Below are positions 15,896 to 64,000 of a stretch of 64,000 nucleotides of DNA, in pieces. How positions within the stretch are numbered: the first letter of the stretch is position 1; the number at the start of each line of letters is the position of its first letter. Under the pieces are notes generated by a model. The model did no database searches. It saw only the letters and a program-made list of their open reading frames with translations, and was not told the origin of the DNA. Position numbers and translations under genes: made by a program. This stretch comes from Schmidtea polychroa (lineage: Eukaryota), in assembly GCA_044892525.1 (NCBI GenBank), contig CM097885.1, positions 162,502,001-162,566,000 on the forward strand, read 5' to 3'.

Positions 15896-15899
15896 TATT

Positions 15900-24323: not shown

Positions 24324-24325
24324 TA

Positions 24326-26599: not shown

Positions 26600-27686
26600 G
26601 GCCTGTCTCGAGTCAAATGAGAGTCACATGCAAAATTACAGCACAATAGGTCCAACGGTGTGGAATTCTATGGGTACCAAACAAACAAACTTTCATCTTT
26701 ACATATTAGATTCGAGCAATAAAGAGTTCCTGAAATATTTAGAAACTGAATATGGCGACATGGTTTTAATACCGAAGTACGTTGGCTTAGCTGCGGTGCA
26801 ATGCTAAAGAGTATGCAACTTAAAAAGCGAAATACAATTGTTCTTGGAAATGAATGGCTATATATGTCTTCCCACATTTTGGTAATAAAGAATGGATGCG
26901 CGATTTTGGGTTTCTTATCGACATGACTCAGCATCTCAATGATCTTAAGGTCGAACTTCAAGGCAAAGGACAGTCTATTCACAATTTGTATGATAAAATT
27001 CAGGGCTTTGACCGCAAATTAAAATTGTGGACACAGCATCTTTTGTAGAATAATGTGTCTCACTTTCCACATTTAAAAAAAGAAAACGTTACTACTTCTT
27101 AAAAATATGGCATAATATATAGACATTTTAATCAACGAATTTCAATTACGATTCCAAATGTTCAAAACTGAGAAGTCATTGGTTTCCATGAAAATGTTTT
27201 CCTCGACATTTAATATCGATGTGGATACAGTTCCCGAAGACTTTCAAGACACGCAGAATAGTAACGATTTAAATAGTATGTGAGCCCTCAGAAATTTCTG
27301 CTTTTGGCGAAAAATGCAAAGCAAATGATGTCTCTGTTCGTAAATTCCTATGTTTGAGAAGTTATTTTCAACCATGAAAATAATCAAAAATGACCACCGA
27401 TTAAGATTCTCAGACTTAGAGTAGCTACCTCATCAATTCCTGCTGATATTGATCAGTTTGTATCGGAAAAAAACAGTGCCAAATATCTCATTAAAAATTT
27501 CAAGTAAATTCGTTTCATTGTTCCCTTCTTGTTTGTTATTATTTTGCATTAAAATTTGAATATGAAATCTTTAATTTTTATTAAATTTTATATTTTTTAT
27601 TCTAATGTTTATTATAAATAAAGTTTTGTAAATTATTAATAAGTGTTTAAATTGGACCATTGATTATAAAGGTTGCTCATTTCTGT
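26600..27686 (+). mobile_element. hAT GTF2IRD2-like transposase 3' remnant
   Basis: HLNDLKVELQGKGQSIHNLYDKI, FSTMKIIKNDH; TIR-like AAGGTTGCTCATTTCTG. Confidence 0.8.
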
Positions 27687-28064
27687 TATAGATTAATAGA
27701 AAACAACATATTGATCTTTAGTCTGAAAAGAAAATTGAATATTTTACCCATTAACTTATTGTTAATTGATTAACAACAATTCAAAATACAAATGCAGCTA
27801 AAAATATATTGTTATAAATATTGATATTACTAACAGTATTAGATGAAAAATATCTTTGAAAAAATGTAAAATTTATTTGATTTGGAAATAAAAGAAAATA
27901 GAATAGGATTGATCTTGAAATAACTTGCTTTCGAATAAAAAGTATGGAGATAAATAAAATGAATAACTAATAGATTGCAGAAACATCTATTTATTAAAGA
28001 AAACAGTACTAATATATTTAATGGAGTTATAATAGTTGTTAGGGAAAAAAAATTTGAATCAGCT

Positions 28065-28322
28065 TCAACTGACTTCTGGTTTACGAGCTGGAATAAATTT
28101 GGAATTGATTGGAACTACATTCAACAGTAGGTTATTCTTGATTACATATTCATATCCAACACTGCTTTTCACACTAGTCGACTTATATTTATACATCAAA
28201 CATTTAATAACTGGACGTGAAATGAATGCATTCACTTTCGATTCAATCCACATTAATTTATTAATAAATGTTTGCTGTGGAACAGAACTCGTTGGAGTAT
28301 ATGAACATTTCTCATAAAGTAT
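28065..28322 (-). CDS. PRELID1: PRELID1-like exon 4
   Basis: ttcag acceptor; ILYEKCSY...KYKSTSVKSSVGYEYVI. Confidence 0.85.
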   Translation of the reverse strand: MLYEKCSYTPTSSVPQQTFINKLMWIESKVNAFISRPVIKCLMYKYKSTSVKSSVGYEYVIKNNLLLNVVPINSKFIPARKPEVS

Positions 28323-34300: not shown

Positions 34301-37300
34301 NNNNNNNNNNNNNNNNNNNNNNNNNNNNNNNNNNNNNNNNNNNNNNNNNNNNNNNNNNNNNNNNNNNNNTTATTTTTACCATTGAATTTATTAAAAAGTG
34401 AGTTTGAAGACTATAAATCAGTAATATGTCGATGTTTGTTGATACTCACGAATTTTCGACACTGCCTTTTTCAATATCACCTTTTTAAAACATATTAATA
34501 ATACAAATACTTTATTCAACCGGAAGTAGAATTTTAATGTTTTTTAAGGTTGGAACAATATTATAATGATAAATAATGTAATTGGATGACATAAAATATG
34601 ACAGAATCTCAAAAAACTATATTGGATTTTTACCATTTTATATTAAAAATGTTTGGTTGGATTTCATGTGACGTATGAAATCAATGTTATAAAATGAATA
34701 CAACATTAACCAAATTATCATTGTCAAACAGAATTTAATTAGACCGATTAGTGAATGTTTGTTTCACAGTGAACTTGAGATTTTTATTTTTTCACATGAT
34801 TTTAATTTATTCGCATAACACAATTGATTGTATCATTGTATCTAGACAAAATACGTATTTTTGAATTTTCTGACAGTAACGCCCTTTGAATTGGTCACTG
34901 TTAATATAGGAATTGATTAATTTCCAATAACAATTACAGGAAATTTTCGATAAGTGTCGCAAGAATTGACACAATTATTTTTAAATCCCATAAAAAATAA
35001 GGTGACAGTTATCAAATTTACAATAATCGATATTTGATTGATGTTTCGAGGGTTTTAAGTATCCATCAAAATAGCTATTGGGTGTGTCATATTAATCGAG
35101 AATTTTCTTTATCTCAATTTTTGCAATTTTTCTGAATAGCTGGAGCGTATTTTACTACATTCTAGATTTGCCATTACGAAGATTTCCAGGCGAAATTCAA
35201 TAATTTCAGGTGAAAGATGTAGACAAACCTACTTTCTATTTTTAATCCGATGACTTATTTTGATGCCAAAATTTATCCATTGCCTCATTTTTTTGTTACC
35301 TATTTATTCAAGAACGCTTCTAGTTTTGAAGAAACAAATTTATTTAATAAGATACTAATTATCAGTCTTTTTAATTTATAGAACTGTTAAGAACTGATGT
35401 AGGATTGCCAACTCCCGCAACCTCGAACCCGAGAGATCGTAAAATTGCGAACAGTATAACGCTCAAGAAATAATATAACGTCTGTTTTTTCACTTTTTTG
35501 GTTTACACAAATTAGTGATTTTAACTATATGATGACTAATACCATAAAGATTTAAACAAAACAATTATTTTTACATATTATATTTTACATTTTTTACATT
35601 TTAAAAGTGAAAAAACCTGACAGTGACAGACTAATAACGTGGGTAAGAAGAAAAACATAAAATCGCTCGCCGCGAACAAACAACTTAAATCAATCGAAGG
35701 GTCAAATTTTCGGAAAAATACTATCACGGGCCACAATAATAACGATTCAAGTAAACTTAGAATCAATTTTTTAAATTAAAAACATCCTTAATTCGAATAT
35801 GAATTCTAAAAAAAACAATTATTGATTTGATGTTTAAAATTGTGTCTGGGCCATATCAAAACGCTTCGCGGGCCACCGGTTGGCCATCGCTGACTTAAAC
35901 TTCCGGTGACAGTGAGCAAAAATAAATCTTGACTATCATTATTTTAGAGAAATCAAATAAAAGTTAAAACTTCAAAAACTGCACTTTTTTCTTGAAATAT
36001 TGTAAAAACGGAAAGACGGGAGATTTACATTTCCCGGGAGACGAGAGACGAAAGCCGATTCCGGGAGACTCCCGGCAAAAACGGGAGAGTTACCAAGCCT
36101 AAACTGATGTTGTAGTACGAGAGAACGTCCATATGAATGTTGCCCATTAAATCGGTTTAATTTAAAATAAGAATAGATAAAGAAAAAATAGGGTTTTAAA
36201 TTTCAGTTTTAAGAAATGTCCTTATTGACCTTGGCCCTGAGTATGAACTTCACTTTTCACATTGACGTTTAAATAGATGTTCTCATGCTTAAGAATTCAT
36301 TGAGAAACTCAATATTCAAGTTTTTATTTACACCACTAATGAAATGGGATTAGGAAAAATGGTATGATTCTGGTGAATAAATTTGTGACCTTAATTTTAT
36401 GGTTTTATATGGATTCTATTAACATCATGTTGTGAGAGCTCTCGTGGTGAGCTCTCATGGCTGTGTAAACGGAAAATGAATTAAAAAGACGAATCTTGAA
36501 CCTAGAGATTTGCAATTCCCGCGAACCAGATCCCCGATATCCCGTGGAAGGATGAAGTCACTTAGCCATAACGCTGTTGAAAATACGCAGGCGGGCGAAA
36601 CCAGACCATGGATGTTGTTGACGAGTTGGAATGTTGTAAAATTTAATGGAATATGGTAGAAAAGTGAAGCAGTATGTAAATGAAAGTTGAACGCTAGAAA
36701 ACGTAAGTCCTTCTATCGGCATCTAGGAACCCCAAAGTGAAGACGAAAGAAGGGAGCTCACCTGCTCATTGCTTTTTAGCCGTTATGCACACTACCAACA
36801 TGGTAGTTACCATGGTTGTTTAGGAGGGAGGATGATATATTATCAGCAACCCTAGATTATTAAAACACATCCCTAGATCCCAACAATAAAACAGAATCGA
36901 AGTTACCTATAAATGCTACCAGAATGGGAAAGCTTTCAGTAAAATCATTTATCTTTTTGTTCATTATTGATCTAATCCTTTTATTAATTTTTATTTAATT
37001 TTCAACTATATATCAGTAAACTGTATATTCGACATATATTTTTGGCACTACTTTGTTTAACAATAACCTTATTTTATAAACTGAATGATGATAATCACTT
37101 AATGTAAACTGTTTCAAAGATAATAGTTGGATAAGAAAAATAATTCTCTGGTCAATAATTCAGCAGAATAAGCTTCAATAATCGAAATAAAAATAAACAA
37201 AAAAAGAAAGAAATAAAAACAAATTCATATTAAATTAAAAAATATATAAAATATAAGTTAAATTAGTTTTCATCCAATTCGCCTTAAAAGCTGCAAGCTG

Positions 37301-38527
37301 GTAAATGAGTTATGCAATATATAATCTTTTTAATTAGATATTCATAAAATTTTTGTTCAATTTGCATTTTCTTATGAAATGTGAGATTCACAATTTCTCT
37401 TTCGAACTCGAAATAGCTGATAGAAAATGAATAATCCAAGAATTTATTTTTTGCATGTCAATAGTTAGTCCTAGATTTAACTTCACCAATAAATCCCGGC
37501 GAACAATTATAATTTTCTAAACGACAGACCAATTTTCTGTCAATGTAGTCTTTATGATTGAGAGCTGCTTGTAAAATCGATATTTTGGATTATATTCTAT
37601 TCTTTTCCATTTATGTTTAATTTAATTGTATTAAGCTTCATTTTATGAATATTCATTCTGAGATTCTTATAGATATTTTCTTTATAAGTAGCAAACTTGC
37701 TATATCACTAAATCCATATCATGTTACTGTTGATTCTTCATGACTCCGATATTCAAAGATTTATTAAAACCTCCAATAACAGTTAATTAGTTAGTACCAA
37801 CACTAAAAACTAAAGTAGTTTTAGTTTTCTTTTTCTCTACGATTTTCAACACTTCATAGCTTCTTACGTTTTATAAAATTATGCATTATTTATTGACTAT
37901 TAATTTTTAAAAAATCAAAAGCATAAATTGATTATCAATAAATTTCTTATGCAGTTAATACTTCAATTTTTTCAAAAAATTGTTATGGTTTTAGAAATTA
38001 AATGAAAATAATTATGCAAATAAAAAATTATGCCTCTAAATTTAATATTATAAAGATTAATTTTATATTCAATTAAGTTTTCAAAAAATATTTATAAGTT
38101 TGTTTAAAGATTACTTACGCCATAATTTTTTGATTCTCCAACATTATAAGTCAATGTATCCATTAATTGTTTACGAGGAGATATTATACTTTCTTCTAAA
38201 ATAAATTCTTTATTTTTAAATAAGTATTTAATGGTAAATGGCAAAGCTTTGAAATGTTTTTTAGTTGTAAGCCGCTTTGTGTATAGACTACCATCTGGTA
38301 AAATTTCTCTATGTATTATATCTTCAGACAAAACATGTTTTCTAAAATGTCATTATCATTTATAGTATGCTTCATAAGCCATACGCATAGGGATTTGGAT
38401 ATCTTTTCCAAAAAAAAGAGGCAACGATATTCCAGGTGTAATTTAAATAAGTTGACGTTTTATATGCTTTGGCTTAATTAAATAATAAATATGGATATTA
38501 CATAAGAAATATATGAGAATTACTCAT
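28065..38527 (-). CDS. PRELID1: PRELI domain-containing protein 1-like (mitochondrial intermembrane lipid transfer), 190 aa, 4 exons
   Basis: Exons 38524-38527, 38385-38472, 38119-38341, 28065-28322 (573 nt, all GT-AG, frame continuous): MTKAYKTSTYLNYTWNIVASFFWKRYPNPYAKHVLSEDIIHREILPDG...NVGESKNYGILYEKCSY...GYEYVI; matches PRELID1 motifs FWxRYPNP, KHVLxED, ExCxY. AATAAA at 27990-27995. Confidence 0.88.
28842..29283. mobile_element. hAT (Tip100-like) non-autonomous element
   Basis: TAGGGTTGC...GCAACCCTA termini; TSD gtatagat/ggatagat. Confidence 0.85.
29508..29821. mobile_element. hAT Buster-type MITE
   Basis: TIR CAGTGTTTCTCA; TSD cattagac/cattagcc. Confidence 0.9.
29969..31802. mobile_element. 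Tc1/mariner-pogo-type non-autonomous element hosting a nested hAT
   Basis: TIR CAC(C/A)TAATTCTGTTTTTAC, TA flanks. Confidence 0.75.
30118..31271 (-). mobile_element. Internally deleted hAT element
   Basis: TAG(A/G)GATTGTA termini; perfect TSD ATACATAC; RPTSVDSERVFSSSG dimerisation motif. Confidence 0.9.
31930..33030 (+). mobile_element. BEL/Pao integrase C-terminal remnant, split by a MITE
   Basis: KWSLARVLELYAGRDGRSRVMKV resembles the BEL WPLGRV..GxDGxVRV motif. Confidence 0.65.
32187..32660. mobile_element. hAT MITE
   Basis: TIR CAGCGTTTC(G/C)CAAA; TSD gtttagag/ctttagag. Confidence 0.9.
33397..34122 (+). mobile_element. pogo/Tigger deletion derivative with CENP-B-type HTH ORF (33615-33917)
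   Basis: TIR CAGT(A/G)AAACCTCT, TA TSD; RKKLTLSEKMDVIK..LIARRFSCSKTQVHNI. Confidence 0.9.
35400..36101. mobile_element. hAT (Tip100-like) non-autonomous element with a nested hAT end near 35892
   Basis: TAGGATTGCCAACTC / GAGTTACCAAGCCTA termini; perfect TSD AACTGATG. Confidence 0.88.
36450..36810 (+). pseudogene. Weak fourth remnant of the LTR accessory locus
   Basis: ELKRRILNLEICNSR resembles EKSKILRLEHCRDS; shares intron motifs with 5986-6088. Confidence 0.4.
38119..38341 (-). CDS. PRELID1: PRELID1-like exon 3
   Basis: KHVLSEDIIHREILPDG...TYNVGESKNYG|gtaagt. Confidence 0.9.
38385..38472 (-). CDS. PRELID1: PRELID1-like exon 2 (exon 1 = ATGA at 38524-38527)
   Basis: WNIVASFFWKRYPNPY; flanked by 51 nt and 43 nt GT-AG introns. 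Confidence 0.85.
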
Positions 38528-41123
38528 AAAATCATCTGTTTCTTTTATTGACGGCATATCAGAAACAAAATATTTCGAATCTATAAACTAATATTTTTAA
38601 CTTTAAAATGATACTGTAAATTAATAAATTTCGAAATTATATTAAACTTAAACAAATATCACGTTGATGAAATATTGAAACAAATAATCGTAAAAATATA
38701 ACATTAGAGAAGTATTATTTAATCACGGTGTTTAAAAATAAAAATATAGGTTCATTTACAACTTTATTCATTTAATTTAATTTTATTTTCATTTGTATTA
38801 TTAATGACAAAGATTTTGAGATGAAATCAAATCAACGATAAAAGATGGAATTAAAAAAAATAATTCCATTAAAGTTATGTTTTAATAAAAATCATAAAAA
38901 ATATTTTAGTCATGAAAGATCTTTGATGACCTAGGGGAAAGAACCACCTCATATTACCTTTAATTTTCAACTTTATACTAAATTATTAAGATTTTTAGAA
39001 GTTAGTACTTGATTATCATTCATGTGATAAAGTCATATCATTATAAAAAATGTCTTGATATAAATAATATCGATTTACTCGTAATTATTACTTGTTTGTG
39101 AAATCTTACAAAAGAATAATGATACTGGGAATGCGTAAATTTTACAACCCGGTGTTGCTATAGTAGGGTCGGTCTAATAATAATTCTCTATGGTAAGTAG
39201 CGTCGCGTGTCGACTGGCCCACTATGTCAAATGACTATAGCACCCGTTGTGGGAAAAACGATTAAATGTGTTTAAGTGAGACTAGGGTAATGGCACTGGT
39301 CTCGGTCATCATATTGCTTCTATACCATGTAGTCATAAAATACAGAGTAAGTGACTCATTATCTTGGACTGCTCACGTACATCGTATCACTTTCCTTGAA
39401 GCCTGACAAAAAGGTTTACGTCTTAACTTTATTACCTTCCACACATGATCACTTCCTAGCTTCCTGCCCTTGGCTACAATATTGGTAATTCGCCAAGGAG
39501 TGCGAATTATATATACAACTTAACATCATTCTCATGTATTCTAGACTCAAAGTCAACATTTAGATAAGGCTTATATAATGAAAGAGACATTTATTATTAC
39601 ACAAAAGGTGAATTAAATTTATGGTGAAACAGATAATCTTCATGTGTATTTCCCGAAATTACTTCATAGTCAGTGGAGTTTACAGGAGTTAAACAGAAAA
39701 AAAACATCACCCCAGATACTCATCCACATCAAAATTGATGTCTGCTAACAAAGGCCACCTTGTCCTGGAATTTCCAGTTACTTAGAGTTGACTAGGTTTA
39801 TCTTTTTATAATCATACTCCTATTTGCTTTCCTTCGCCTCATCTGGACCTGATTTTTTAAACTGCCCTCACCTTTGTCGGATGACATAACTTAGCGTTTG
39901 ATATTTGGTGATCGGTTCTCCAGTTACACTAACGTGTAGACTTTTTGGAGAGTTCTCCCCTGTATATTTATGACTTGGTTGGAGGGAAATGAAAGGCATT
40001 AGATTATCCTATGTGTACCTATTGATAGTAAAAGTGAACAGTCGTCAACGCTAAACACACTCAATGATAGAATCATTGAAGGTCATTTAACTTAATTTAG
40101 CAATGGAATTTAGTGTTCAGAAACTATCTGACTTCTTTACTGGCTACTTTATAGGTTTGGTTGGTAATTCGAATCTTAACACTGACATCACTTTACAATT
40201 CACGCCACATTTTTTACCAATCGGTATCTTAATTCTACCCTAGAGAGTGAAATTTTAAAACCTTCCTGAGTCCACATCACATTTATACTATGGTTTCTGA
40301 AAACTCTAGTTTTTAACACTCGTCAAATCCGAGTCGAGTCCGAATCTAATTTTAAACTAAAGTCAATAAGTGAAAAGGTTTAATATCCTGAAGTTCAATA
40401 ACAATTCTCATAGATGAAGGCTTTATAACAAAATACTTACTAGAATTTTTTAAAATTCTGACTTTTGACTGAAATTTGTGGTTGTCAATAATTAAAAAGA
40501 AAATGTACTCAAATTTATTATTTAATCAATTTTTTTATTTTGAAAAATCAAATTTTAAAAGTATATATTTGAACATTTATTTGATTCAATTCAGTTGCTT
40601 TTTTTGTCTTGAGGTCAGCAAGTCTCGACCTAATTTTATTACAGAAGCTGCCACTTATTGAAGATGTTCTTTCATTAGAAGTTGAAGTTGGTTTTATGGA
40701 TGTAGACATAAAGATTACTTATTTGTTTTCCAGTATTTTTGAAAAGCAAAAATTCCTATAATTTTAGTTTGCTATAAATCTCAGATTGTTTTGAATATTC
40801 AGCAGTGCTTTTCAAATTTAAATCAATTTCTTCCCCAATTGTCAATTTTTTTGATTTTCAATTATTATTAATTCTTGATCTTGCTAAGTTTCCGTTTATT
40901 CACTAATATCTTCTTTAGCCCTTTAGAAGGTACAAATTTTGAATTTTTAAGCGTTTTGAAGCAAATCCGTTAAATTTACATTTACTCACTCATCAATTCT
41001 CTTCTCCATATTTTTTAATAATTCAAACGCTATTTAACTTTTACAGTTGAAGATATTTCTTTTCGTGTACTCCAATGCAATAATAATTAATAAATAATAA
41101 ATAATCTTTATGTGTGTTTATGT

Positions 41124-48183: not shown

Positions 48184-51100
48184 GTGAGTAAATCGTTAAT
48201 TGCATGACTGATTAACCGAGTAATCGGATGGAAATTTGTCGAAAACTAAACCAAACACATTACTCCAGAAAATAACTAATTAATTTCTCTCTAAACTTTG
48301 CTTTCCACTATATCAGAACAGTGTAATAATTTTTTTTTCTTTAAATACACAACATAAAATAAATTGTCAATTTTGATTTAATGAAGCGAAGGGAAATTAT
48401 TTTCATCCTATTGGAATTATGAGAACTGTTTATCTTTGCTACCCAGACGCGACAACGCAGATGGCCGAGAAAAAAATTTAAATCTCTTTTTCATTGAAGG
48501 AAATCGTAGATGAATTTTACACCTGGCCATATAGACCAAGAGCTCCCTACAGCATGCAGCTAAATGATGGATAGTTCTAGCGAACCGTATGATTTTTTCT
48601 TCATTCTTCATAAAGATAAGAGACGAAATTTCATTGACAATTGAAAAAAATAATAATAATATTTATAATAATTTTTTCTGATTTTAGTTAAAATTTTTGA
48701 TTTTTATTAACATTTTNNNNNNNNNNNNNNNNNNNNNNNNNNNNNNNNNNNNNNNNNNNNNNNNNNNNNNNNNNNNNNNNNNNNNNNNNNNNNNNNNNNN
48801 NNNNNNNNNNNNNNNNNNNNNNNNNNNNNNNNNNNNNNNNNNNNNNNNNNNNNNNNNNNNNNNNNNNNNNNNNNNNNNNNNNNNNNNNNNNNNNNNNNNN
48901 NTTTTAATTTAAAGTAAATCTATTAATTAAATATTAATTAATTTACTTATTAAAATCATAATGGTTCAGCTTAGAGTTACTCAAAAAAATTATTCATTAA
49001 CGGAGGCTAGATATTTTTCAAACCCTTGGGATAACAGTGCCCTAATACGTGAATACATAAACGCGCGTAAAATTTAAGAAGTATTAAATTGAAATTAAAC
49101 AGCATTTTTCTCCTGGGAGATTTCATAATATCATTCAATGGATCGAGCACATTAATAATTCCTCAATCCATAAAACATGAGCTATTAGGTTACAAAATTA
49201 TACGCATTTTTTCTCTATGGTGTACTCAGTTTATACATTATCTTTCCCTTGTTTAATAAAACAAATATAAGTAAATAAATTCTATAACACCTGAAATTTG
49301 ATTACTAAAAAATAATAATGTCATTTTTCTTTATTTTCATGGTTATTAACAATATAAAAACTACATTACACGGGCCCTTGGATTCGAGAATTTATTTGCT
49401 ACGAAATTCAAAAAGCGATTTTTTTTATTTTGCGATGCAAAGATGTACTTTGGACTTACCGCAGGAAAATACTGGTGCAGTCTTATAATTAACATTTTTA
49501 CGTGTCCCTCTGTTGGCAATCTCATGATAGTGATGAAGACCATCTAAAGAAATACATGATCAAGGGATACTGTGAGTGACATGATCTCTTATTGTCATAG
49601 TAAATTCCTCATATTTTGAACTAGAAGAAAGTCAACTTCTTTTTCTTGGCTTATTATTTTTTCCTTCGAGAAGAAGGGCTTCAATGATACTCGTTTTGAA
49701 TTCTTACAGTATATCTCGAAATCTCTACGATAGGGTAACCAAGAGCTTACAACAGTTAAATTTATGAAATGAAAAAAATGTTGGTGATAATATTTTCTCG
49801 ACCTGGTGTAAAAAAAATAAATAACAGTTTATTTCAATACAATAAACACCTATATTAAATATAGTTCACACTAAAAAAGAGAGCTCAGGCACCATCTTCC
49901 CATTTTATATATCCTTTAACATTCAATGAAACATCTTCAGCTTCAAAAGCTTCTGATAACACTAAAAAAATTTGACAAACTACATAGAGGATGAGCTACG
50001 TATATGTTCTCTATAAATATGGTAACTGGGTATAACTGAAGCTTTTGTTGCTAGTTTAGCCAAGCATTTAATTTCTGTTTTTGAGAGACCAATTTTTGAT
50101 AATATTGGGTCATTAGCCCGGTCCCATGATCCAATTAGTCCAATTACTAACGCCGAGATCGTTGTTTTACTTTCCAATTTGAAATCCTATACTCATTATC
50201 GAAATTTTCACTATCCTCATATGGAACTTTCAGGTCTAAAATATGGAAAAATTATTTCTTTGAGGCTTTATTAGTACATCTGGTCGGACTGTTGTTTCAA
50301 TTCCTTCTGGAGGCATTTCAATATCTCCATTTATGCCTATTGATCTGAGATATTCTCCAACAACTTTTAGAATATTTGAATGTTTTTTTCTTCTGAAATT
50401 TATTCCATTTAGGCCAACGTTTCCCAAAGTGTGGGACGCGACCCGGCACCGGGCCACAGGAAAGTTCAGCAGGGTTGCGACAAAAGTTGTAAAAACACAA
50501 AAAACTTTCCATTTCATATTATTACATCGGCTAGTCACTAGGNNNNNNNNNNNNNNNNNNNNNNNNNNNNNNNNNNNNNNNNNNNNNNNNNNNNNNNNNN
50601 NNNNNNNNNNNNNNNNNNNNNNNNNNNNNNNNNNNNNNNNNNNNNNNNNNNNNNNNNNNNNNNNNNNNNNNNNNNNNNNNNNNNNNNNNNNNNAATTCAA
50701 ATGGAAAGTAAGCGAGGAAAAAAAGGCAAATAAAAGCGGGATCGTGCACAGAATCAATAGTAAAGGAAAGTGTGATAGAAACAGTATTAGAAAATGCCAA
50801 AAGCAATTAAGAAAGGCGAGAATCCGGAAATCGGAGAAAAATCAATAAAGGGAAAAATCATCGAAATCGAATGGGAAAAACGGCACAGGTATAGATTAGC
50901 TAATGGTCAACAAGATGATGGTTAGGGATTTATCAGAAAAGGGTTAGGAAGGGTCGAAAAACATTCAAATGTATGAAAACAGAAAACGTTAATTAATTAA
51001 TTAATTGGCTAATGGAAAACCCGAGCTAATGGGAAACCCGAGCCAATGGAGAACCCGAGAGATAAAGGAAACCCGAGCTGGGTAAACAAGAAGAAAGGCA

Positions 51101-54100
51101 AACAAAAGGAAGATTTGGGCCCATTAGCTTGACACAATGATTAATGGGAAAAGAGTAAGGAGAAGATAGCGCGCGTAGGAAGACCGGTAGGGCCATTAAT
51201 TATCTGGATTCGTTGGACCATTATGGATGACAGCCGAAGCAAACACGTAGGAGAAAATGTCAAACGAAAGATTGGCTCGACAATAACCATTTGTCATCCT
51301 GATTTCGAGGAGTATATAAGCAAAGGGAAAATCAGAGAAAATCGGCATTTTGCCTCAGGTAGGGTAAGAAGAATCGAGAATAGTCGAGAGGTAAAAAACG
51401 AATTTAGGGAAGTAGGGAAAAGAAGAAATAGAATTAAGAATACGGAAAGGCAGAAAGGGATCAAACCAAAGAGAAACCGAGGAAAAAGAGAGTCGAGAGA
51501 ACTAAAGGAACAAAAGGTGAATATTGTTTGTTGGCAAAGCATCAACGCCGAGCGGAGAATCGTATAAAACTTTGATTGGTAATTGTAGCGTGATAATAAA
51601 TTGTGAACTTGTTGTTTCAATATACGTTGGGTCGTTCATTGTTTTGATTTAAAGAACACCAGGAGTCAGAGAGAACCGACTTGAAATAATCCAAAACCCA
51701 ACAATATATATATTATATATAGAAATATATAGAAATATATATAGCATATAAATTTGGGAAACGTTGTTATATAATTATTTTGCAATTTTTGTGTAAGAAA
51801 TTAACAAACAAATAGCTTGATTTTTATTAAAAAATAAATGTTTTTCATAAGGTGAGTCGCAAAAAATTTTAAAATCTCGTACCGGGCCGCGGTCAAAAAA
51901 ATTTGGGAAACGCTGATTAAGGCAATGATAAAATATGTTTGCCTGTGTTTCTGGTTGAGTTTTGCAGTGCCTACACATAATATCAAGGTTTTCTTTAAGC
52001 CGGAATGGAGTATATTATAGCTCGAGTATGATGTTCCTAGCTTTAATCAAAAAGTAAAATCGTGGATCAGTTAGACAATCAGATTGGATAAAGATTGAAG
52101 AGTATTCACTATCTCCAATAGATTTAGCTATATGTCCTTGGCAGACCATTATCTTTCATTTTTCTGCATATATATCATGCTCATTAAATCATGCAAGTCT
52201 AAGCAGGTTTCATCCATATTATCTTTATTCATAATTCTAAATCTTTCTGCATAGTCAATTTCTAATACAAATTCATTATCTATTATTTTTAGGTGGATCA
52301 CAATGTTGAACTTCTCTTTTATACGTTTCACCGATTTCCTAAATTATAAAAAGAACAACGCTTTGTTTCCAAATATGATACTTTCTCCATTCATCCATTT
52401 CAACGCGGCATCAATACTTGATCCTCTTTCTCTAAAATAAATTAATTCACTTACTACCATCTTTGTCTTTTGAGTTCAACATTCTTACAAAGTGAACAAC
52501 ACTTTGTATCAGGTATTCGTCTATTGTCTGAGTTATGCCTAGTCCTCCATATTTACAGCTGGCATATGGATATAATTATTATTCATATTCTGAAACTTAT
52601 CCTTAACCATATCTTTTATTATTCTCTTGACTTTCTGATCATCTCCAAGTTGTTTGTCTCTCATTTGCACAGTCCTGTTTCTATCTGTGTCCAACACTAT
52701 ATGATTCAAAATACAATTTCTGAAGCAGAATATGAGTCTCGAATGGACAAATATTTTGTAGGCATAAAGCTTCTGTGATGGGTGCAGATTACATTTCATA
52801 ATAGCTTTGTATCCGCTAAAGCTTCATTCAATATTATAGCTCTTTATCATTGCTATATCAATTCCCAAATATGTATATAGATTATCTTCATTAATAAATA
52901 ACAATTTTTCATCATATAAATAAATAATATTTTCTATTTTGTTCTCATGCAGTTGATAATATCCACATTTTGAAGGTTTAAAATTCAAACAGCACATATT
53001 AGCTGATTCCATAACCTTATTCAATGCCTCAATAATCCCAATTCTTGTATCCGACAATAGAACAATATCATCTGCATATGCCAGAATGCTCAAATTATAT
53101 CCATGCACAAGAAAGGGATTGGAATTTAGCACATTCTTGAGTATTTAGTCAATTGTTAAACAAAACAAAGTCATTGAGATTGGATAGCCTTGCGTAATTC
53201 CTTGTTTAATTGGAGTTTTGCTTGATATCTTTTTCTTGCACTCATAATAAGTAACGACATTCTCATACATATCTTTTAATAGGTTCATGGTTCTGTAATC
53301 CATTAACATTCTTTCTAATACTAACCAAATCATGTAATGGTGTAAACTTCCAAGAGCATCAACAATATCTAACCATATAATGTGTAGATTGTTTTGTCTT
53401 CTTATCGCGTTCTCAATTGCAATTCGTATTGCTAAATGATGCTCTGCACAGCCATCAGGTGCTCCAACTGCTTTCTGGTTTACACTCAATAAATTTCCAA
53501 TTTTTATCCAGTTCAGAATTCTATCATTTAATAAAGTGTCAAAGATTCTATATGCCGTATTCACTATAGCCAAAGGTCGACAAGGTGCTGTCTCGTGGCT
53601 TTTATCTTTTTTCCCTGGCTTCAAGATTAGTCTTGTCCTAAAAATTTCCAGTTATTTGGACATTTCCTATTTCTGAGTATATTATTAAATAATTATATAA
53701 GAAAGTGATAGTTTTGGTCAATCTTTCTTCAATCTCCATAAGTTATCTTATCTTTGCCCGGGGGAGACTTCTCCATTTTGCTCATTATATATTTAATCTC
53801 TTCATAATCTAGTATTTTCTTCTTTAAACATTGGTGAGCTCAGGACTTCCTTAGGTTATAAGAATTGCCAGTTGATGCTTGTAAATGCAGCAACAAATCG
53901 TTCCAGGTTGGGAGCAGCAATATTAATTTTCCTATTCCATAATTTTAGGAGTTCTTCTTTTGGATTAACTTTAAATTTGAATCTCCTTACACAAGTCAGT
54001 TCAAACGCAATCTTTATATTCAAATGAATGGGATCAGATTGTTTTTTAATTTCATATTTTTTGGGTTAATTGTACAGTTGATCCTTTCAATTTCTAGAAA

Positions 54101-57100
54101 TGCCGGCTCATACCGAGCATGATCACTGTCTAGCTGGATAATAAAGTCTTTAATAAACAATCTATATTGTTATATCATCATCCGATCTTCTATTGTTTAT
54201 AATTTCCATTGTAAGATCTTTCATTTCTTTTCTCATTTTTTCAATTTCTGGTCCTGTAACCGCAACACTTGGGTTAAGACATTTTAGAAAATGGCATATA
54301 TAAATTGGGCTGTTGGCAGATGATGTACATCATGGATATATCAATTCTGTCAAGACAACATCCACATTGACTATTATACTCTGGATTGATCAAATAGTTT
54401 TTAGTAGTTCAGTTGCAAACAATTCATGGGCTGGAACGCTTTCACGCAAAGTTGCATCAATCATGGTTGCATATTTTCTTTTTGAGTCCAGATAAAAGAG
54501 GCTCCATGCATTAGTGATTGTCAGTGGGATAATGAACGTTAACGATAAGAATCCTACAGTTTCCCACGAAACACCATTTGTCCACTGCTAGTACATTAGA
54601 TGTTTGTTATAAACTAAAACAAATAAAAAACTACATATAAAAATACTTTCTTTCTACATGCATAATTTTAATACAATAATCAAAATATAAATAAATAAAT
54701 TATTAAATCTAACAATTTAGTTTTATAAGTACCTGCATTTTATTAGGTAAACGCCTTTTAATAAGTAGTAGGTCAAAAAATAAACCTTGTCTTCAATTCT
54801 GCCTCTCCCATAAATAGGGAGAATATGGCAGTTACATTTGGTGCAGTGAAATAACATAACCAAAACACTCGTTAAAATTTTTTATTTTGAATTTTTTTAG
54901 TACCAAACAAAAAAACCCGCCGAGATCGAACAACATTTACAAGACAGCAATTGGAAATATTAGAGCTACATTTTGAGAAAAACAGATATCCTGATATATT
55001 TCTTCGGGATGAAATTTCCTCAAAAATCAACTTACCCGAATCACGAGTCCAGGTTTGGTTCAAAAACCGACGAGCTAAGGAAAGACAAAAGAGTAAACAA
55101 AAACCCAACAGTTATACGGTAAAAGTTTATAAATAATAATTAAATTAGAAATTATATAATTTCTCAAATAAAGATTCAACCCGAACAAATGCCTGCCTTG
55201 CCCGACAAACACATTCTCCATCGAATGACAAGCATGAAAAATGGAAATCATTTAAAGGAGAAAATAAAACTTAGCCAAGATTTGCCAGATAATCGCGGAA
55301 TTAATGATGTGAATTGTGTAAATGATTCCATGAATTCCTCAGATAAATTCTCTAAATCAGACAGCAAAAAAAATCCAAAACCAAAAATTAAAGAAAATCA
55401 AGTAAGCAAAAAAATCATTCTGAATATAATCCAATGGCCTCTCAGTAAATCTGTTATCTTTCACGTCAATTATCTTTTATCAATTTTCTTTATCTTCATT
55501 TCGCTTTCATACAATAAGCTTTTATTTCGACCGTTTTTGGGAGACCATTTAACTGGAAATTAAGACAAATGGTACTAAATGATGCAAACAATGAAATTAA
55601 ATATACAAAGACTCCTTTAAAAATGTATAACTCGAATGTTGCATAGGAAAATTAATTTTTGATCTATAATCATAATGAGAAAAAAAAATTAAACGTTAAC
55701 AGATCAAAGGTAAACAAAAAAATAAAAGACTTTATTAACAATGTAGAATCTTGATGTTTTAAAAAATTGTTCTGTTTAATATAATATCGTACTGGCTTCT
55801 AGACAGGGCCATTCCAAAGTCTTTTGGTACGTCATAAAACGATCTCAATCATAGAGCTACACCTGACAGTTTTTCATACCGATCTCCAAAAAATTGAATA
55901 TTAAATAAAAATTTATAAATTTAAAATAAAAATTAATTGAATATATATTTATATCCATATACAGGCATACTTGAGGTATGATACCTCTAATAAAACTACT
56001 TTAAATTTTATGCACTCTTTAAATTTTATGAAGAAAGAAATTTTTTTCAAATTCGTTATTTTTTATTTCGTATGAACAATTCTATTATGTATATACAGTC
56101 GAGCCCACTTTAGTAGGATCGGGATATCTCGGATTTTGGCGTATGTCGTAGTGTTTTCAAAAGTCAGGATATTAAACTTTTACAATTCATATAAATTTTA
56201 CAACTTAAGTCGTATAAATAAGTCGTATTTTTGATTATCTCGTAGCTATTGTTACTTGCATGTACGAGTATTGTTTATTTTTTCTTTGTATGTATTGATT
56301 TTTTCTACATTCACTCTTCGTACGTAGTTGTACTAATAGATATTTAAAAATAATGTTATTTAAATGTAATTATTAATTTGATAATTAGTTAGTTTTAATG
56401 AATAAACTTTTAAAAATTATATAAATTGAGTTTTGCGATTGCTTTATGAAGTTTATAAAAGCAAGCTACAGACTCAGACGTACAATGAAAAAATATAAGA
56501 ATGAATTGCTCTTGCAGGAACCATTCGTAGATGAAGTCAGTAAATTTAAAGAGAGCTTTGAATCATTTATTACCAAGCTTCTAAAAAACTTCTTTGAAAA
56601 AAAATTAACAAGTGATTATAACTTAGCGGTTTTGTTTTTTTTATATTCCTTATGTTTTTGAATTATGTACCAATCCTCATCCTCTATGTTAGGAAATAAA
56701 TTGGCAACTATCCAGGCATCCAGAATGGGTTAAGTGCCATATAAACTGCAGTTATAACAATGAAATGGAAAGTCATTCATTTTTATTGAATCAACAATAA
56801 ACAAATAATACGGCAAAACCATATATTTGATATAAGTTGTATTTGACATAAATCGTATGAATTTTGGTATTTCTATCAAATCCGACTTAAGCGGGCGAGA
56901 CTGCATAATTACTTTTTTCTAAATAATTTCAGAATTTATTTAAAACACCTTGGCTACTTGTAAATCTTATGTAATTCACAAGAACATCTAAGTCAGTGGT
57001 TCTCAATTAATATAAAAATGCGGAACACCATTCACATGATTTTTTAACGGGAACACCGACAAAAAAATACTTGCCCACAATGAGTGACCAATCACAAATT

Positions 57101-58795
57101 ACTATAAATTTGTTGTAAACGTAAACAATGCCTTCTTATAAGAAAAGAAAATACCACGTACAACAATAAAAAGCATTAAAAACACTTTTATATGTGTATG
57201 TTTATATATCTGTGTAACGGCTTTCTTATTGAATCATCCTATAAAAAAATTAAGTGAGGTTTTTGATGATAAGTATCTTAAATGCAAATTTATAGATAAA
57301 ATGCCATTTTTTTCGCGGAGCACTGGAAGTGTAATCGTGGAACACGGGTTGAGAACCACTGATCTAAGTTATATGCAACCCATATTAAATATTAGTTTGG
57401 ATGAAAGTAACTCATTCGCCAGTATTATTGCATTTAATTTATAATTCGTGGAATATTTGTTTAAATAATTAAAATTCATTAAATAAAAAATCAATTACAC
57501 ACACACAAACACATATACATCTTATTTGTTTTTTATTGAAATATTATATTGAATTCTAATTTAATTTATTGTTTTAAATTAATTATACATTAAATAAAAG
57601 ATATATTTTCAATTTTGATCATTTTTTATTTCAATGCATCAAAAAATATTTATGGAACGGAACTTCATATTCTAATGTGCTTTCTAAATTTTCAGGAACA
57701 CAACCTGAGTGAAAAAGGATGTGTCGATAATCCGTGAATTTCAAAAAAAAATCGATATAATTACTGATTCATAGTCAAAAAATTTTTTCAAATAAATACG
57801 ATCTCAATTGAAAAGAGATCAGAGGTGAAAATTGAAAAAAGTTCTTATAATATATTACTTTATCAATTATAAGTAAACACTATTTATGGAGTCCCTGTAA
57901 TAAGGGCTAACCTGTCTCTAACTTTACATAGTGTTCAGCTCAAGTATAAGTTATTTTATATTATTTACTTTAGTAAACATTTTAGTTAAATTATCGATGA
58001 AATCCTTTTAATAAATTTGTTAATACCTGAAATCGTTTTGCAAATAAAAAAAACGCTTAAATTTAGTTCAATAAAAAATACTTTGCAAATTTATAAATCT
58101 GATAATCTACTGACAAATTAATGAGTAGTTAAAATAAAAACATTAAATAGTTTGGTTAATAAATAAATTTATATTTTTAGAGTTCGAATGGATCAATTAA
58201 AAACATTGGTAATAGTGCCAAATCACTTCCGATCAAATCGGAAACCAACACCATACCCAATTCAAACAATAATATTTCTCCAATAAATACCATTGACTTA
58301 AGATCTCCAGAACAAAAGCCATTTTATCCAGAATATATCAACAAATATTCCAGCTGGCTAAATGGAAACAATGCTTTTGGATGCGACAATAATTTATGGA
58401 GTGCAAGACATAAACCGATAATGTCATCCCATGATAATCCATTTACAACGAGCTGCCTGACCGGACAACATGAAAGGAATTCACTTCTAATCCCATCACA
58501 GAACGCCGAAGTGAACTCGTCAACATCACTAGTGCCTCCGTCAACGAATTTCCTGAGATATTTTGATCATTCTTCCACTGACCAGTCAATAATGGACCCT
58601 ACCTGTAATCCTGCTAATATGTTTTGTGACCTACCAAATGAAGGTTACATAAATGGATATACACACAATTTTTACAATTATTCACCGAAATTCTCCTCAG
58701 GAACATTGTCCAATTACAATGATTCTTATCCACCAACCGCTTCATGGCCTCTTACAATGTCCGGCCACAGAGACTTTGGCCAGTGGACTCAATGA
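47775..58795 (+). CDS. otx: Otx-family PRD-class K50 homeobox protein, 489 aa, 4 coding exons
   Basis: Exons 47775-48183, 54901-55118, 55174-55401, 58181-58795 (1470 nt, GT-AG, phases 1,0,0 consistent); homeodomain [55 protein letters not shown]; AATAAA at 58921. Confidence 0.93.
49023..49760 (-). mobile_element. piggyBac transposase C-terminal remnant
   Basis: LDGLHHYH and [12 protein letters not shown] resemble the piggyBac DGxxHWP and Cys-rich C-terminal motifs. Confidence 0.5.
50415..51915. mobile_element. hAT MITE inserted in the NeSL endonuclease region, itself carrying an LTR
   Basis: TIR CA(A/G)CGTTTCCCAAA; TSD atttaggc/attaaggc; extra right end at 51766. Confidence 0.8.
50694..51703 (+). 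repeat. LTR related to the 14991 family (left end in gap)
   Basis: Same 17 bp AATGG(A/G)AAACCCGAGCT units; U5 GGAGTCAGA..ACCGACTTG..AAAACCCAACA followed by ATAT. Confidence 0.8.
54901..55118 (+). CDS. otx: Otx homeobox exon
   Basis: Complete homeodomain with K50. Confidence 0.97.
55174..55401 (+). CDS. otx: Otx coding exon 3
   Basis: 55 nt intron before; ends CAA|gtaagc. Confidence 0.8.
56096..56903. mobile_element. pogo-like non-autonomous element
   Basis: Imperfect TIR CAGTC..GCCC.CTT.AGT.GGA; TA on the left flank. Confidence 0.65.
56994..57361. mobile_element. hAT Buster-type MITE
   Basis: TIR CAGTGGTTCTCAA; perfect TSD ATCTAAGT. Confidence 0.92.
58181..58795 (+). CDS. otx: Otx terminal exon
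   Basis: ttttag acceptor; open to TGA at 58793-58795. Confidence 0.85.
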   Translation, partial: SSNGSIKNIGNSAKSLPIKSETNTIPNSNNNISPINTIDLRSPEQKPFYPEYINKYSSWLNGNNAFGCDNNLWSARHKPIMSSHDNPFTTSCLTGQHERNSLLIPSQNAEVNSSTSLVPPSTNFLRYFDHSSTDQSIMDPTCNPANMFCDLPNEGYINGYTHNFYNYSPKFSSGTLSNYNDSYPPTASWPLTMSGHRDFGQWTQ

Positions 58796-59228
58796 ATTAT
58801 CCATATATTTATATATATAAATATAAAAAAATATGTTTAATCCAAAAATTTCGTTTTGTATTGTACATGGATTAAATGATAATTAATTTGATTTTTAATT
58901 ATTTTTATAACGTTATAAAAAATAAACATTTTTAGTAATTACTGAAGAATTATGTCTCAAGTTTTGAAAAATAATTTCTATTAAATTAGATTAAATTGAA
59001 TAAATCGGTTAACAGAAAAAGAAAAATTTCAAATATATAGAAACAGTCAATTTTTATCAGTAGCTTAGTCAATTAAGGGGGTATTCAATTCTTTTAATCG
59101 AAATTAATAAAACCCTTTTTTATAAGGTATCAAGAAAGATTTTCACAGGATAAAATTACACATAGACAGAATTACACATTTAATTTTCTTTTAATTAATT
59201 GAAATAAAAAATATAAAAATTGATAGCG

Positions 59229-59644
59229 TAGGAGAGCTACATTCACATCCAAAATGTGTATGCGATCCACTTTTTTAAAAAAAAAAAAAAAGTACTCCTC
59301 CATTTCTTCGCAATAATGATAAGTCTTGGCTTTTTTATTTAGCATTTTTTTATTTAGCATTTTTTTATTTAGCATTTTTAAACAAAAGTAATTTAACAAA
59401 AAAGCTTAAGAAAATTTTTCACTTTGTTACACCAAAATTTTTTTTATTTAGCATTTTTAAACAAAATTAATTTAACAAAAAAGCTTAAGAAAATTTTTCA
59501 CTTTGTTACACAAAAATTTAAGCATAAAACAGAAATTTTATATAAAATCTAAATTTATATAAAAAATATTTTTTTTATGAAGATCTACTAAAAAATCCTT
59601 CGCGATCTACCGGTAGATCGCGATCGACCTTATGGACACCCCTG
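59229..59644 (+). mobile_element. hAT MITE copy 1 (right TIR only)
   Basis: Ends ...GGACACCCCTG followed by GTGTAGTC; near-identical to 62986-63394. Confidence 0.9.
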
Positions 59645-60093
59645 GTGTAGTCAATCCTTTTTATTGTTTATATTATAAATTATAAGAAATAAATAGACCA
59701 ATCAGAATAATTGGAATTTGAAAGTAAATAACGATCAATAAATCTGATCTCTGGGATTCGGATAACTTCAATCTTTACATGGAACAAGGGTGATACCATC
59801 TTTAGTCAATATTTTTCCTATGAAGATTAATAGCCATTGCCTAAGCATTTTCCTGTCGTCCCCAGATAATTTAAAAATTCGTGTTACCATTTGTGTTCCG
59901 AAAAGTAGGATCGTCTCAGGTACATAAATGTCATCATCGCTGGGTAAAGTCAGTCCGTCACATTTGCTAAACGTACTATTTGGTCTACAAATACGGAACC
60001 TTTGATATTATTCGATCCAATCATTATGTCATCCAGTAATTTACCTATGTACTTTCCATTTCGAGCACAATGATTCAAAAGAATGTTCAATTA

Positions 60094-60743
60094 AAACCCT
60101 GTTTCTCGTGTTCGGATAAGAACACAGTTAACCGAACACAAAAGAAGAAATAAAGCTGCTGAAGACGATGATTGGCCTACTGGGGGGGGACCTGGTTCAC
60201 CCTCGTCCAGATGAAAGAGTCCATCCAGAAGGTACTGAGATTGAAACACTGTAGAGATAACCTCTTCGAAAAGAGTCGGACCCAAAGTACCCTCATACAG
60301 GAGCACTTCCAAGCCTTGTATCAAGTGTACACAAAGAACAAACTCGAGGCTAGAATCAAAGGGCTATATTAAGACAAGAGATCTAAGGTGCAGCTGTCAC
60401 CAATAGTTCAGTTTATTCAATGTTGATTTCAAGCTCTACCGCACCAACAGCCCTAACCGCTGAAACAAATGACAATCTAATCGTAATAGTCACGCATTAC
60501 CAGGCCTTCAACTCAAGCGATACGTCCACGTCCTAAGCGCAAACAAATCTCGTGCTCAGGGTCTAACAAACGCAAGCTAGCCAAAGAAGCGGCCGAAATG
60601 GGTATCTTGGCCACCAATATTTGTCCACCGGAGGTCGATCTCCCGATCTCTTGCACGAGCCTTCCTTGGATGTGAAACCAAGAGATCAGTTCAACCTAGA
60701 TGAAATCTTAGTGAATGCTGAGGACGAAATTTTCTGGCAATGA
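60094..60743 (+). pseudogene. LTR accessory protein copy 3 (frameshifted)
   Basis: PCFSCSDKN, GTWFTLVQMKESIQKVLRLKHCRDNLFEKSRTQ, ...ALYQVY, C-terminal NLDEILVNAEDEIFWQ*. Confidence 0.8.
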
Positions 60744-62985
60744 TTTCCTTGACTATTTAATACTGATTTATTTAATTTACTTGATGTGATTACCTTATTA
60801 ACATATTTTCTCCGGTTTACTTTACTTGGTTTGTTAACATATTTTTACAAGACTAATAATTAAATTAGAGTCGATTTTACCTTCAGTGTCATCAGTCTAA
60901 AGAACCAGGTTTTTTTAAGTGGCAAGCCTAAAGACTTATTATCCGCAGTCACAAACCCGCCGAGAAGGTTTGCAGAGGTTTCACCTGCTCTGTAGCTTTC
61001 TCCGACTTAGCACTATTCCAACATGGTTGCAACTATAACTGGTTAGTCGTTTTGAAATAGTGATGCGGCGACTTTCTGGAACTTGTACTCATCGCAACCT
61101 ATGATCATACCCTCACAGTCAATTTTCTTCTACATTCTCTTTGAACTTTCGCCGAGTAAGCGCCAACAATATCAATATTAGTATAATATTTGTATAAATA
61201 AATTGATATAATCGAACAATTGAATAAGTATTTATATTATTATTATAGTAATTTTATATTGTAACAATTATTCGATTGTTATTTAACACTGAATCATATA
61301 ACAGGGGAGGCCAACCTGTGGCTCGCGAGCCGCATGCGGCTCTTTGAAGATTTATTTGCGGCTCCTGATAAATTTATTTGATTAATTTTTTATTTTTCCA
61401 TTATATTTAAGAATTATTATCGTTGAGTATGTTGAAGAAGACTACGCAATGTGTAACAGCATTGACAATGATGAATTCATCATTACCATTCCAATTCCGA
61501 AGGATTTCAATATGACTACAACAAACAAAATGATCCCGACGAAGATCTACTGAGATTAATTATCAGGAACCAGACACAAACCTCACCAAAGCATTAAAAG
61601 TAAAAGAGAAACCATTCATCGTAGAAGACTATGTTGGTTTTGGCAGTTCAATATTAGAAAAAGTTAGAACAAACTTATTCTAAGCGACACTTTAACTTTC
61701 GGGACTCTTCCTTCTCCCATGGTCCCATGTATCTATTTTGATTTATATTGCGAATACCCATTTTAATTAAAACAAAATCTCCAATTCGAAATTCGCGATT
61801 TGTTAATAAATTGATTCTATTATCTATCGGTGTTTGTGAAAAAAATTCACTATAAATCTATAAAATATCAAAATGTTATCGAAACATTTCTAATGCGTTA
61901 AAGCGTATGTTTCCTTAGAATAGTTTAAATAGATGACAACGAATAGGGAATTGAGTCCATAGGAAAATGATGAAGGATAAGGTAAAATGAGGCACGGCAC
62001 CTTCTACGGCAGTCAATGAACACAGCGACTCTTCGGATTAATAGCAGTTCACTTTACAGAACTCACCTCTTGCTGACAGTCAACCACTAAATCGTAGTAC
62101 CAACGTCTCGTGCGACGGGCTTTTAATGACCAATTAAAACAGTTATGTGCGGTTACGGAGAGGAATACGAAAATAAGGAGAAAGACGACCAAATTACAGC
62201 GAGAAAGCGCAGTATCTTCCCTACATTTGATGGATACATCGAACCAGCACAATGGGAATTAAAGTTCAAAACAGATGGCACCAGAAGAACATATCAGAAG
62301 ACAGAGAAAGAGAACAGCAAATAAAGATGAAGAAATAGTCAACAATCAGATACAACAGCAGTGAAATTGACTGTGATCTGGATTCTCATAAAGGATATTT
62401 CTCGTTTGAAAAGTATTAACCATTCAATAAAGATCAATCAGGATATCAGAGTCCAGAAAATGAAACATAGGACTAATGAACTGAATCAGAACAGGATTTT
62501 ACGACGAAAGAACCGAATTTCGTTATTGACTAAAATAAAACAAACATCACTGAAAAAGATATATGCCATCATTTTTGGTAGACAAATTTGCGACGATGAT
62601 GTGTTAAACCTTGCATTAAAATAAAGATTAATAAACGACAATACGAATAAAATATATCCCAATAAAACTATTCCTCGCTGAAAAAGATAATGAGAACATT
62701 ACCTTGACGGCTCCCAAAGAAATTTTGGATAACAAGGGAAGATATATCGAAAATTTTCAGTTGGTTGGAAATTACCGAACAAGCCCAAACCAATGTAGGG
62801 CCAATATCTATGACAATAAAATATCCCAGTTCAACGTGGGTCCCAAAGCAATTCAGAAAGCAATCCAATACTCAACAAACACATATTCATTCATCTAATT
62901 ATTTACATTTAATCATTCTTGTGAGACAATTTGATTATCCTTCATACACATTATTTATCCACTTGTTTAATTGGAAAGTGTAGTC

Positions 62986-63394
62986 CAGGGGTACCCACTA
63001 ATTTTTCTAGGAGAGCTACATTCACATCCAAAATGTGTATGCGATCTACTTTTAAAAAAAAAAAAAGTACTCCTCCATTTCTTCGCAATAATGATAAGTC
63101 TTGGCTTTTTTATTTAGCATTTTTTTATTTAGCATTTTTAAACAAAATTAATTTAACAAAAAAGCTTAGGAAAATTTTTCACTTTGTTACACCAAAATTT
63201 TTTTATTTAGCATTTTTAAACAAAATTAATTTAACAAAAAAGCTTAAGAAAATTTTTCACTTTGTTACACAAAAATTTAAGCATAAAACAGAAATTTTAT
63301 ATAAAATCTAAATTTATATAAAAAATATTTTTTTTATGAAGATCTACTAAAAAATCCTTCGCGATCTACCGGTAGATCGCGATCGACCTTATGG
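62986..63394 (+). mobile_element. hAT MITE copy 2 (left TIR only)
   Basis: GTGTAGTC|CAGGGGTACCCA; lacks the last 9 bp of the right end. Confidence 0.9.
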
Positions 63395-64000
63395 TAAATG
63401 TGTAATTTCGTCATAGTGTAATTTCTTCTGTGTAATTTTGTGAAGGGTATCAATGCTAAAATGACCTTTAAATAATCTAACATGAGAAAGATGTTTTTAC
63501 AAACTTTGTTATTACTGTAACAGATTATTAATGTAAATATTATTGTTACAAGCAACAAAATTTTAGGGATAATTATACTTTGTTGAGAAAATTTTTGTTA
63601 CCTCGTCTCTGAATTGTTTGATATCGTCGGTGTCATATCCAGCTTTGTATGTGCCTTAAGTTCCAAGATTATACTTGTTCATTCGTATGACAGGATGTTT
63701 GGAATTTGTAGCTCTTAATACTTCACACGTGTTTAAATTTTCAATGACACAATAAAACCTTTTGCTTGATACCTAGGGTAAATGCTCCTAAGGGAAATCA
63801 CCCCAAGAGGAAACGAATCTGATTTAGCTTTTCAAAAAATTTCTCTACGTCTTCCCTTTTTCTAATTCCAACTTTTGTTTAAGAATTAGTCTGCCTACTT
63901 TTATAACCGATTTTGCAATTTGCCTATGTCTTTCGCGTCTACTATAAGGTTCTCTCTTATTCAATTAGCCTCAAATTAAATAATTTGCATAGGAGGAGCC
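63395..64000 (-). mobile_element. Heavily degenerate retroelement pol-like remnant
   Basis: Fragmentary RT-like peptides with many stops. Confidence 0.3.

Follow-up and report, generated by a model that had tools for sequence, protein, structure and literature searches.

A recent circularly permuted duplication flanked by two end-clipped mini-transposons in Schmidtea polychroa

We analysed a window of 64,000 nucleotides (nt) from contig CM097885.1 of the Schmidtea polychroa assembly GCA_044892525.1, of which positions 59229-63394 are a recent circularly permuted duplication of 3.3 kb of repeat-derived DNA, flanked by two end-clipped mini-transposons, that is, MITEs (miniature inverted-repeat transposable elements). 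The permuted copy is very likely both real and ectopic. A preliminary description of this DNA had offered two routes to such a structure, and the second of them, in which a MITE-bearing circle recombines into another MITE copy, fits best: with a probability of about 0.4, a MITE-bearing circle recombined with, or was copied into, a resident MITE that had lost its ends. The structure is a natural example in which known processes are combined.

The two flanking elements are direct copies, both on the plus strand, of an element of about 420 nt (59229-59644 and 62986-63394). Copy 1 lacks its first 22 nt, the left terminal inverted repeat (TIR), and has an intact right end, whose TIR at 59633-59644 reads CAGGGG.. 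on the minus strand and points into the segment; copy 2 keeps its left TIR at 62986-62997 and lacks its last 9 nt. The 8-mer GTGTAGTC, read on the plus strand and with a central TA, stands directly after copy 1 (59645-59652) and again directly before copy 2 (62978-62985). The preliminary description had taken this for an inward-facing target-site duplication (TSD) between two hAT ends, and indeed, the copies retain their inner ends only and carry GTGTAGTC at both inner borders. A scan of the whole window for CAG..CTG end pairs with matching 8-mers returned three ordinary outward pairs and a single inward one, the pair at 59229-63394. Two random 8-mers of the window match by chance with p of about 9e-5, and GTGTAGTC itself occurs three times on the plus strand of the window and not at all on its minus strand. 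When the window was compared with itself by BLAST, matches of at least 40 nt revealed no further copy of the segment or of the flanking MITE. An alignment of the two MITE copies has 3 substitutions in 387 bases and three indels. All of these differences lie within the left 210 nt; the right-hand 197 nt show none, which is what would be expected of a conversion or copying tract. Both copies contain an internal tandem unit of 78-79 nt (59346-59497 and 63106-63257). Other members of the family diverge at 59435 and before 59512, and the two copies have this sub-family interior in common.

It had also been proposed that joining the end of the segment to its start restores a peptide on the minus strand. 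In fact, at the start of the segment a stop is followed by TIKRIDY in this frame, not by NNKRIDY, and the other side stops 16 codons in. Being mis-framed, with stops on both sides, the read-through is no evidence, and it is contigs that carry the case instead. Positions 57900-64000 were compared with public sequencing runs in the form of assembled contigs; four of seven runs were used, X1 and X2 from study P1 and X4 and X5 from study P2, and contig counts, joints and statements that none was found refer throughout to the matches listed. Study P2 matches the window, and study P1 differs from it by 1.4% (26/1798).

The empty site that had been predicted was looked for in these runs and was present in all four, as a joint from 62977 to 59645 with 8 letters that fit both sides. 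In X5, a contig of 2015 nt (record 24) runs from 61434 to 62977 and then from 59645 to 60115, with no difference from the window and at a depth of 109.7; the same native order, 62977 to 59645 to 60115, was found in X1 (record 2, depth 44.6) and in X2 (record 9). The segment thus consists of two parts, of which part X (61434-62977, 1544 nt) natively stands before the target site and part Y (59653-61433, 1781 nt) natively follows it. Part Y carries, at 61302-61432 on the plus strand, the left 131 nt of a MITE of a second hAT-like family, truncated at the closing junction of the permuted segment; other copies of this second MITE continue with different letters past 61432 (listed for three of the four runs). 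Contigs of study P1 that cover 61434-61651 (X1 record 7 and X2 record 14) have 410 nt of other sequence upstream of 61434. Record 24 of X5 starts exactly at 61434, which would reflect two different predecessors. The contig ends thereby place the closing junction, where the window joins part Y to part X and which none of the listed contigs bridges, at 61433|61434, with base 61433 assigned to neither side; this lies inside the range of about 60750-61950 in which the new internal junction had been expected. The native order would then be upstream sequence, part X, the 8-mer, part Y (to 61432) and the remainder of the second MITE. At 61651, contigs of study P1 break and carry extra letters, at least 159-209 nt of them; P1 there has either an insertion or some other difference that the window lacks.

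At the borders of the insert, record 21 of X4 stops precisely at 62985, which a branch at this point would bring about. This stop is consistent with the coexistence of filled and empty forms; X5 lacks the break, which contig simplification could explain. In record 29 of X5, 30 nt of copy 2 run into the right flank, and the right outer junction is therefore real.

Depth and a length marker bear on the number of copies. In X5 the segment has a depth of 106-111, against 51.4 and 53.7 in the flanks, a ratio of 2.0-2.1, and in X1 and X2 the ratio of segment to flank is 1.0-1.4. Contig depth is no copy number, and the firmer evidence is a 164-nt stretch with two paths (60772-60935), which is present in the window copy and in study P1 and missing from the other copy in study P2. 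The skip from 60771 to 60936 has a depth of 53.8 in X5 and 77.4 in X4, where the unskipped contig has 55.4 and 114.9, respectively; in X1 and X2 the skip has a depth of 0. In X5, the paths with and without the 164 nt add up to the depth of the segment (55.4 + 53.8 versus 109.7). We read this as two copies of the segment in study P2 and one in study P1.

If the inter-transposon segment had been permuted in place, as in maize Ac/fAc, which was the first route of the preliminary description, the orientation of the ends and the inward 8-mer would be as observed. However, the segment is duplicated and not merely rearranged, as is seen from the ratio of about 2.1 in X5 and the 164-nt two-path marker in X4 and X5, and the copy in native order persists. 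Moreover, the closing junction falls within another MITE, 131 nt from its left end, and connects the inside of this MITE to sequence whose native upstream neighbour is a different one, rather than joining the former flanks of the two elements, and the P1 sequence upstream of 61434 continues for 410 nt without the contig break that would be expected of this high-copy MITE. There may have been resection before closure at the closing junction. A classical in-place permutation is very unlikely, and this part of the earlier proposal was given up.

The flanking element is, to judge from its ends and its target, a Buster-type MITE of the hAT superfamily. Of 14 positions compared between its TIRs, 10 agree, including all of the first 7, and its TSD is 8 bp, GTGTAGTC being present once at the empty site and twice in the window. 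It resembles the Buster-family hAT MITEs of PMC3517528, for which short TIRs of 5-27 bp and an nnnTAnnn target, the Buster signature, are described. A central TA is found in the GTGTAGTC site, at one other copy of the family and in three of three outward hAT-like controls from other families in the window. The element shares with Buster MITEs such as Mar (PMC3517528) TIRs that start with CAGGGG, the 8-bp nnnTAnnn target, the lack of coding sequence and a high copy number; it differs in that no autonomous partner or transposase could be linked to it. Summed contig depth over the MITE in X5 is 22,000-40,000 in three bins versus about 52, i.e., hundreds of times single-copy depth, to be read as an order of magnitude only. 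At least nine X4 contigs begin the family at 62986 with unlike flanks (agreement 0.49), and one X5 contig has another copy that ends identically before a different TA-centred 8-mer. Thus, GTGTAGTC is the target and not part of the element; that it belongs to the element, which had been named as grounds for doubt, is ruled out by these other copies with different flanks. The three outward pairs of the scan are ordinary hAT-like MITEs from other families, at 56994-57361, 29508-29821 and 32187-32660, each with an 8-bp TSD that has a central TA.

The differences between the copies bear on their age. The two segment copies in study P2 are nearly identical. The listed X4 and X5 contigs of the segment have no substitutions relative to the window (a paralogous contig of the second family, record 28, was set aside). 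By depth arithmetic, a stretch of 2015 nt would hide about 0 bubbles and one of 571 nt about 1, and contig ends hint at possible differences between the segment copies near 60763 and 60960. If 2-5 segment differences are assumed, the contrast with the divergence of the MITE copies gives a Fisher p of 0.011-0.047. Since the MITE copies diverge more than the segment copies, they were probably distinct before the segment was copied, i.e., two pre-existing copies.

This divergence also speaks to a route without any circle, by which the MITE-filled native site was tandemly duplicated and the inner unit, which reads MITE, 8-mer, part Y, part X, 8-mer, MITE, was then cut out as a composite, clipped and captured, or copied in by gene conversion. 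One capture would account for both clipped outer ends, and a tandem junction yields the same order, being a named false positive for circle-mediated duplication in PMC7188851. It had been held that either of the two routes first proposed implies a circular intermediate; in view of the tandem junction this is too strong for the whole structure, but the circle itself stands as probable. A tandem origin would make the MITE copies as young as the segment copies, whereas they differ at 3/387 bases, against about 2/3170 estimated for the segment. Furthermore, only two copies of the segment are present in X5, one of them with the empty site, and the filled tandem donor must therefore have been lost. 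We consider an origin without a circle quite unlikely.

Outside the two MITE copies lies a host repeat, with a left arm at 59153-59182 on the plus strand and a right arm at 63395-63424 on the minus strand, which adjoins copy 2; the arms are inverted partners over 30 nt with 83% identity. Their exact inverted match of 13 nt was equalled by 13 of 2000 random stretches and their strict local score by 4 of 2000; under a lenient score they were equalled by 30 of 181, which is weak. A joint between opposite strands, 59166/63400, was found in all four runs. Since the outer flanks are the inverted arms of one repeat family, they probably belong together. Direct repeats at the outer ends of the insert do not exceed 3 nt, a 2-nt TA repeat being all that is found there, and a clean insertion at the outer site was not borne out by other family units in the contigs. 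The empty outer site, 59228 to 63395, is not among the 15 joints listed, although contigs prove no absence. A joint from 59224 to 63539, present in all four runs with a side of 24 nt, was set aside, as an AT-rich match of this kind may be fortuitous. In study P1, the right flank at 63612-64000 may be absent, diverged or hemizygous.

A further possibility is an error of assembly. A native tandem duplication with one MITE-filled unit, together with a separate doubly clipped MITE between the two flanks, would give the sequence of the window if the assembler had crossed twice inside the MITE. This arrangement has k-mers and depths identical to those of the window, and contig data therefore cannot separate the two; the 197-nt identical stretch that the MITE copies have in common and six runs of N of 151-255 nt in the window also favour it. 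However, a path of this kind, once it had left the left flank, would have to come back to the right flank that belongs to it across a gap of 4.2 kb rather than 0.4 kb. The window also lies more than 162 Mb into its contig, which points to a chromosome-scale assembly made with long-range data, and both MITE copies have private differences and contain no N. A mis-join is accordingly improbable, at about the same level as the tandem origin.

If a circle recombined into a resident MITE, the 4166-nt insert would be a recent ectopic duplication that arose as follows. End joining at 61433|61434 would have linked the end of the native segment of 3333 nt (part X, the 8-mer and part Y) to its start, the simplest product being a DNA circle. 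An ordinary insertion of the Buster-type MITE at the 8-mer, in the circle or in its source allele, would have duplicated the 8-mer. The circle would then have entered a resident MITE that lacked its two TIRs, either through a crossover or through copying during gap repair, over the roughly 385 nt common to both. The product would read clipped copy, right TIR, 8-mer, part Y, part X, 8-mer, left TIR, clipped copy, which is the order of the window. Recombination into a resident copy explains both the presence of two distinct MITE copies and the identical right tract. The contigs show the empty site, two copies in one study versus one in the other, and the ends of the family; we infer where the closing junction lies, that a circle and a resident copy existed, and that these recombined. 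Clipped hAT ends are common, since among excised hobo/Hermes circles only 40-50% kept both termini (PMC2803484).

Several observations weigh against this reading. None of the listed contigs from the four runs spans the insert. The left outer junction and both inner MITE junctions are in no contig directly, and record 24 of X5 crosses the empty site unbroken. Neither a MITE-filled native allele nor a single clipped resident allele was seen in the contigs of the four runs. The depth of X4 is uneven (segment/flank ratio of 0.6-1.4) and gives no clean copy number, for which it was not used; the figure for segment divergence depends on bubbles that were deduced from depth. The right flank has a low depth in study P1 (10-25 versus 36-43 in the left flank), so that the pairing of the flanks is unconfirmed there. 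Finally, a doubly clipped copy is an unusual target, since most recombination would be expected at one of the many intact copies.

In another explanation, transposase does the work. Two resident, head-to-tail clipped MITEs would have had their facing ends paired by transposase, the spacer would have been dropped and the ends would have been inserted into a circle of the native segment, the inward 8-mer arising at that step. A single event would then cover the inward duplication, the near-identical native copy with its empty site and the retention of inner ends only. There is precedent for the chemistry: when Ac/Ds ends in reversed orientation excise, the spacer is lost as a circle and 8-bp duplications are made (PMC3470690, PMC4270019), facing Hermes ends at least 80 bp apart integrate efficiently in insects (PMC2803484), and such ends are active in maize, rice and insects (PMC3470690, PMC4270019, PMC2803484). 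Capture by reversed ends likewise requires two pre-existing MITE copies. However, an unseen clipped dimer and its chance encounter with a foreign circle are needed, the permutations described in PMC3470690 involve the element's own spacer whereas here the segment is a second copy, and the 197-nt identical tract is not predicted, a weak point with p of about 0.12 on substitutions alone. Capture of this kind is possible, if unlikely, and the corresponding statement, that in an animal germ line a hAT transposase captured a non-transposon circle from elsewhere by way of the facing ends of two singly immobile MITEs, is likewise doubtful. The MITE-bearing circle that recombined or was copied into a resident clipped MITE continues to be our preferred reading.

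The cargo of the permuted segment looks like decayed repeats without a recognisable gene. No Pfam family was found in any of the six frames (stops read as X), one of the six frames had no match among 1.84 billion representative proteins, and parts of the cargo are multi-copy in the contigs. Readings of the translations as gag, piggyBac or Polinton are supported by no search.

Upstream of the insert, a homeodomain is encoded at 54918-55088 (Pfam E value of 2e-22), with a lysine in the recognition helix, and is putatively Otx-like. An open frame of 204 codons at 58181-58795, 3 kb downstream of the homeodomain, may be the last exon of the homeobox gene; the insert starts 434 nt past its stop, and the hAT-like MITE at 56994-57361 sits between the homeodomain and this frame. 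Elsewhere in the window, LTR-like direct repeats that are 95% identical (14991-15900 and 24326-25205; LTR, long terminal repeat) enclose gag and zinc-knuckle frames (16167-18469), and related fragments lie at 50976-51711. Broken frames of LTR retrotransposons (zinc knuckle, RNase H and integrase) and reverse-transcriptase fragments of a probable non-LTR element are found at 1343-5820 and 52824-53651. An exact direct repeat of 90 nt occurs at 3865-3954 and 10429-10518, 6.56 kb apart.

How circles of chromosomal DNA re-enter the genome is described as unresolved in PMC7450558 and PMC7188851. In the present case, a hAT target site marks the entry point to the nearest base; the empty site exists, as does a strain that lacks the duplication. 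The inward duplication makes a simple signature by which any assembly rich in MITEs can be screened. Its significance is limited in that this is a single case whose cargo carries no gene and gives no sign of function. If capture by transposase were true, extrachromosomal circles would have landing pads in pairs of clipped MITEs, and there would be a transposase-driven route to dispersed duplication that could be recognised genome-wide by inward-facing TSDs.

Circle-mediated segmental duplications have been described in humans (cSDPs; PMC7450558, PMC7188851) and, as cited there, for cattle KIT, tilapia vasa and yeast. Like the cSDPs of these two papers, the structure has a rotated derivative copy and a retained copy in native order (the joint 62977 to 59645, in all four runs). 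Its closing junction may likewise have an insertion of at most 1 nt, here base 61433 at a junction placed by contig ends. As far as PMC7450558 and PMC7188851 describe them, however, cSDPs open and integrate without homology or transposon ends, whereas in the window the opening point coincides exactly with a hAT target site, which is duplicated over 8 bp and has a MITE to either side; also, cSDPs exceed 20 kb, whereas the permuted segment is 3.3 kb and holds no known gene. The reversed ends of maize Ac/fAc and Ds (PMC3470690, PMC4270019) offer a second likeness, in that right and left ends face one segment with an 8-bp duplication at both ends and a permuted order, but the maize segments described are the element's own spacer and single-copy, and in the window the segment duplicates a different site and neither outer end is retained. 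Composite insertions made by re-replication of Ac (PMC4270019) likewise combine two element ends, copied DNA and an end-joined internal junction; in those, however, the duplication lies outside and donor flanks are carried, whereas here the duplication faces inward and the target flanks are inside. Alternative transposition is also known for VANDAL21 of Arabidopsis (PMC12312487).

At the level of titles and abstracts, mostly without the subscription literature, no case from an animal was found in which two hAT ends enclose a foreign circle and the duplication faces inward. A formal parallel is bacterial: in the translocatable units and pseudo-compound transposons of IS26, a circle that carries a single element is joined to another copy of it and is then itself bracketed by direct copies. 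This is an analogy only, since the element in the window is a eukaryotic cut-and-paste MITE without copy-in chemistry.

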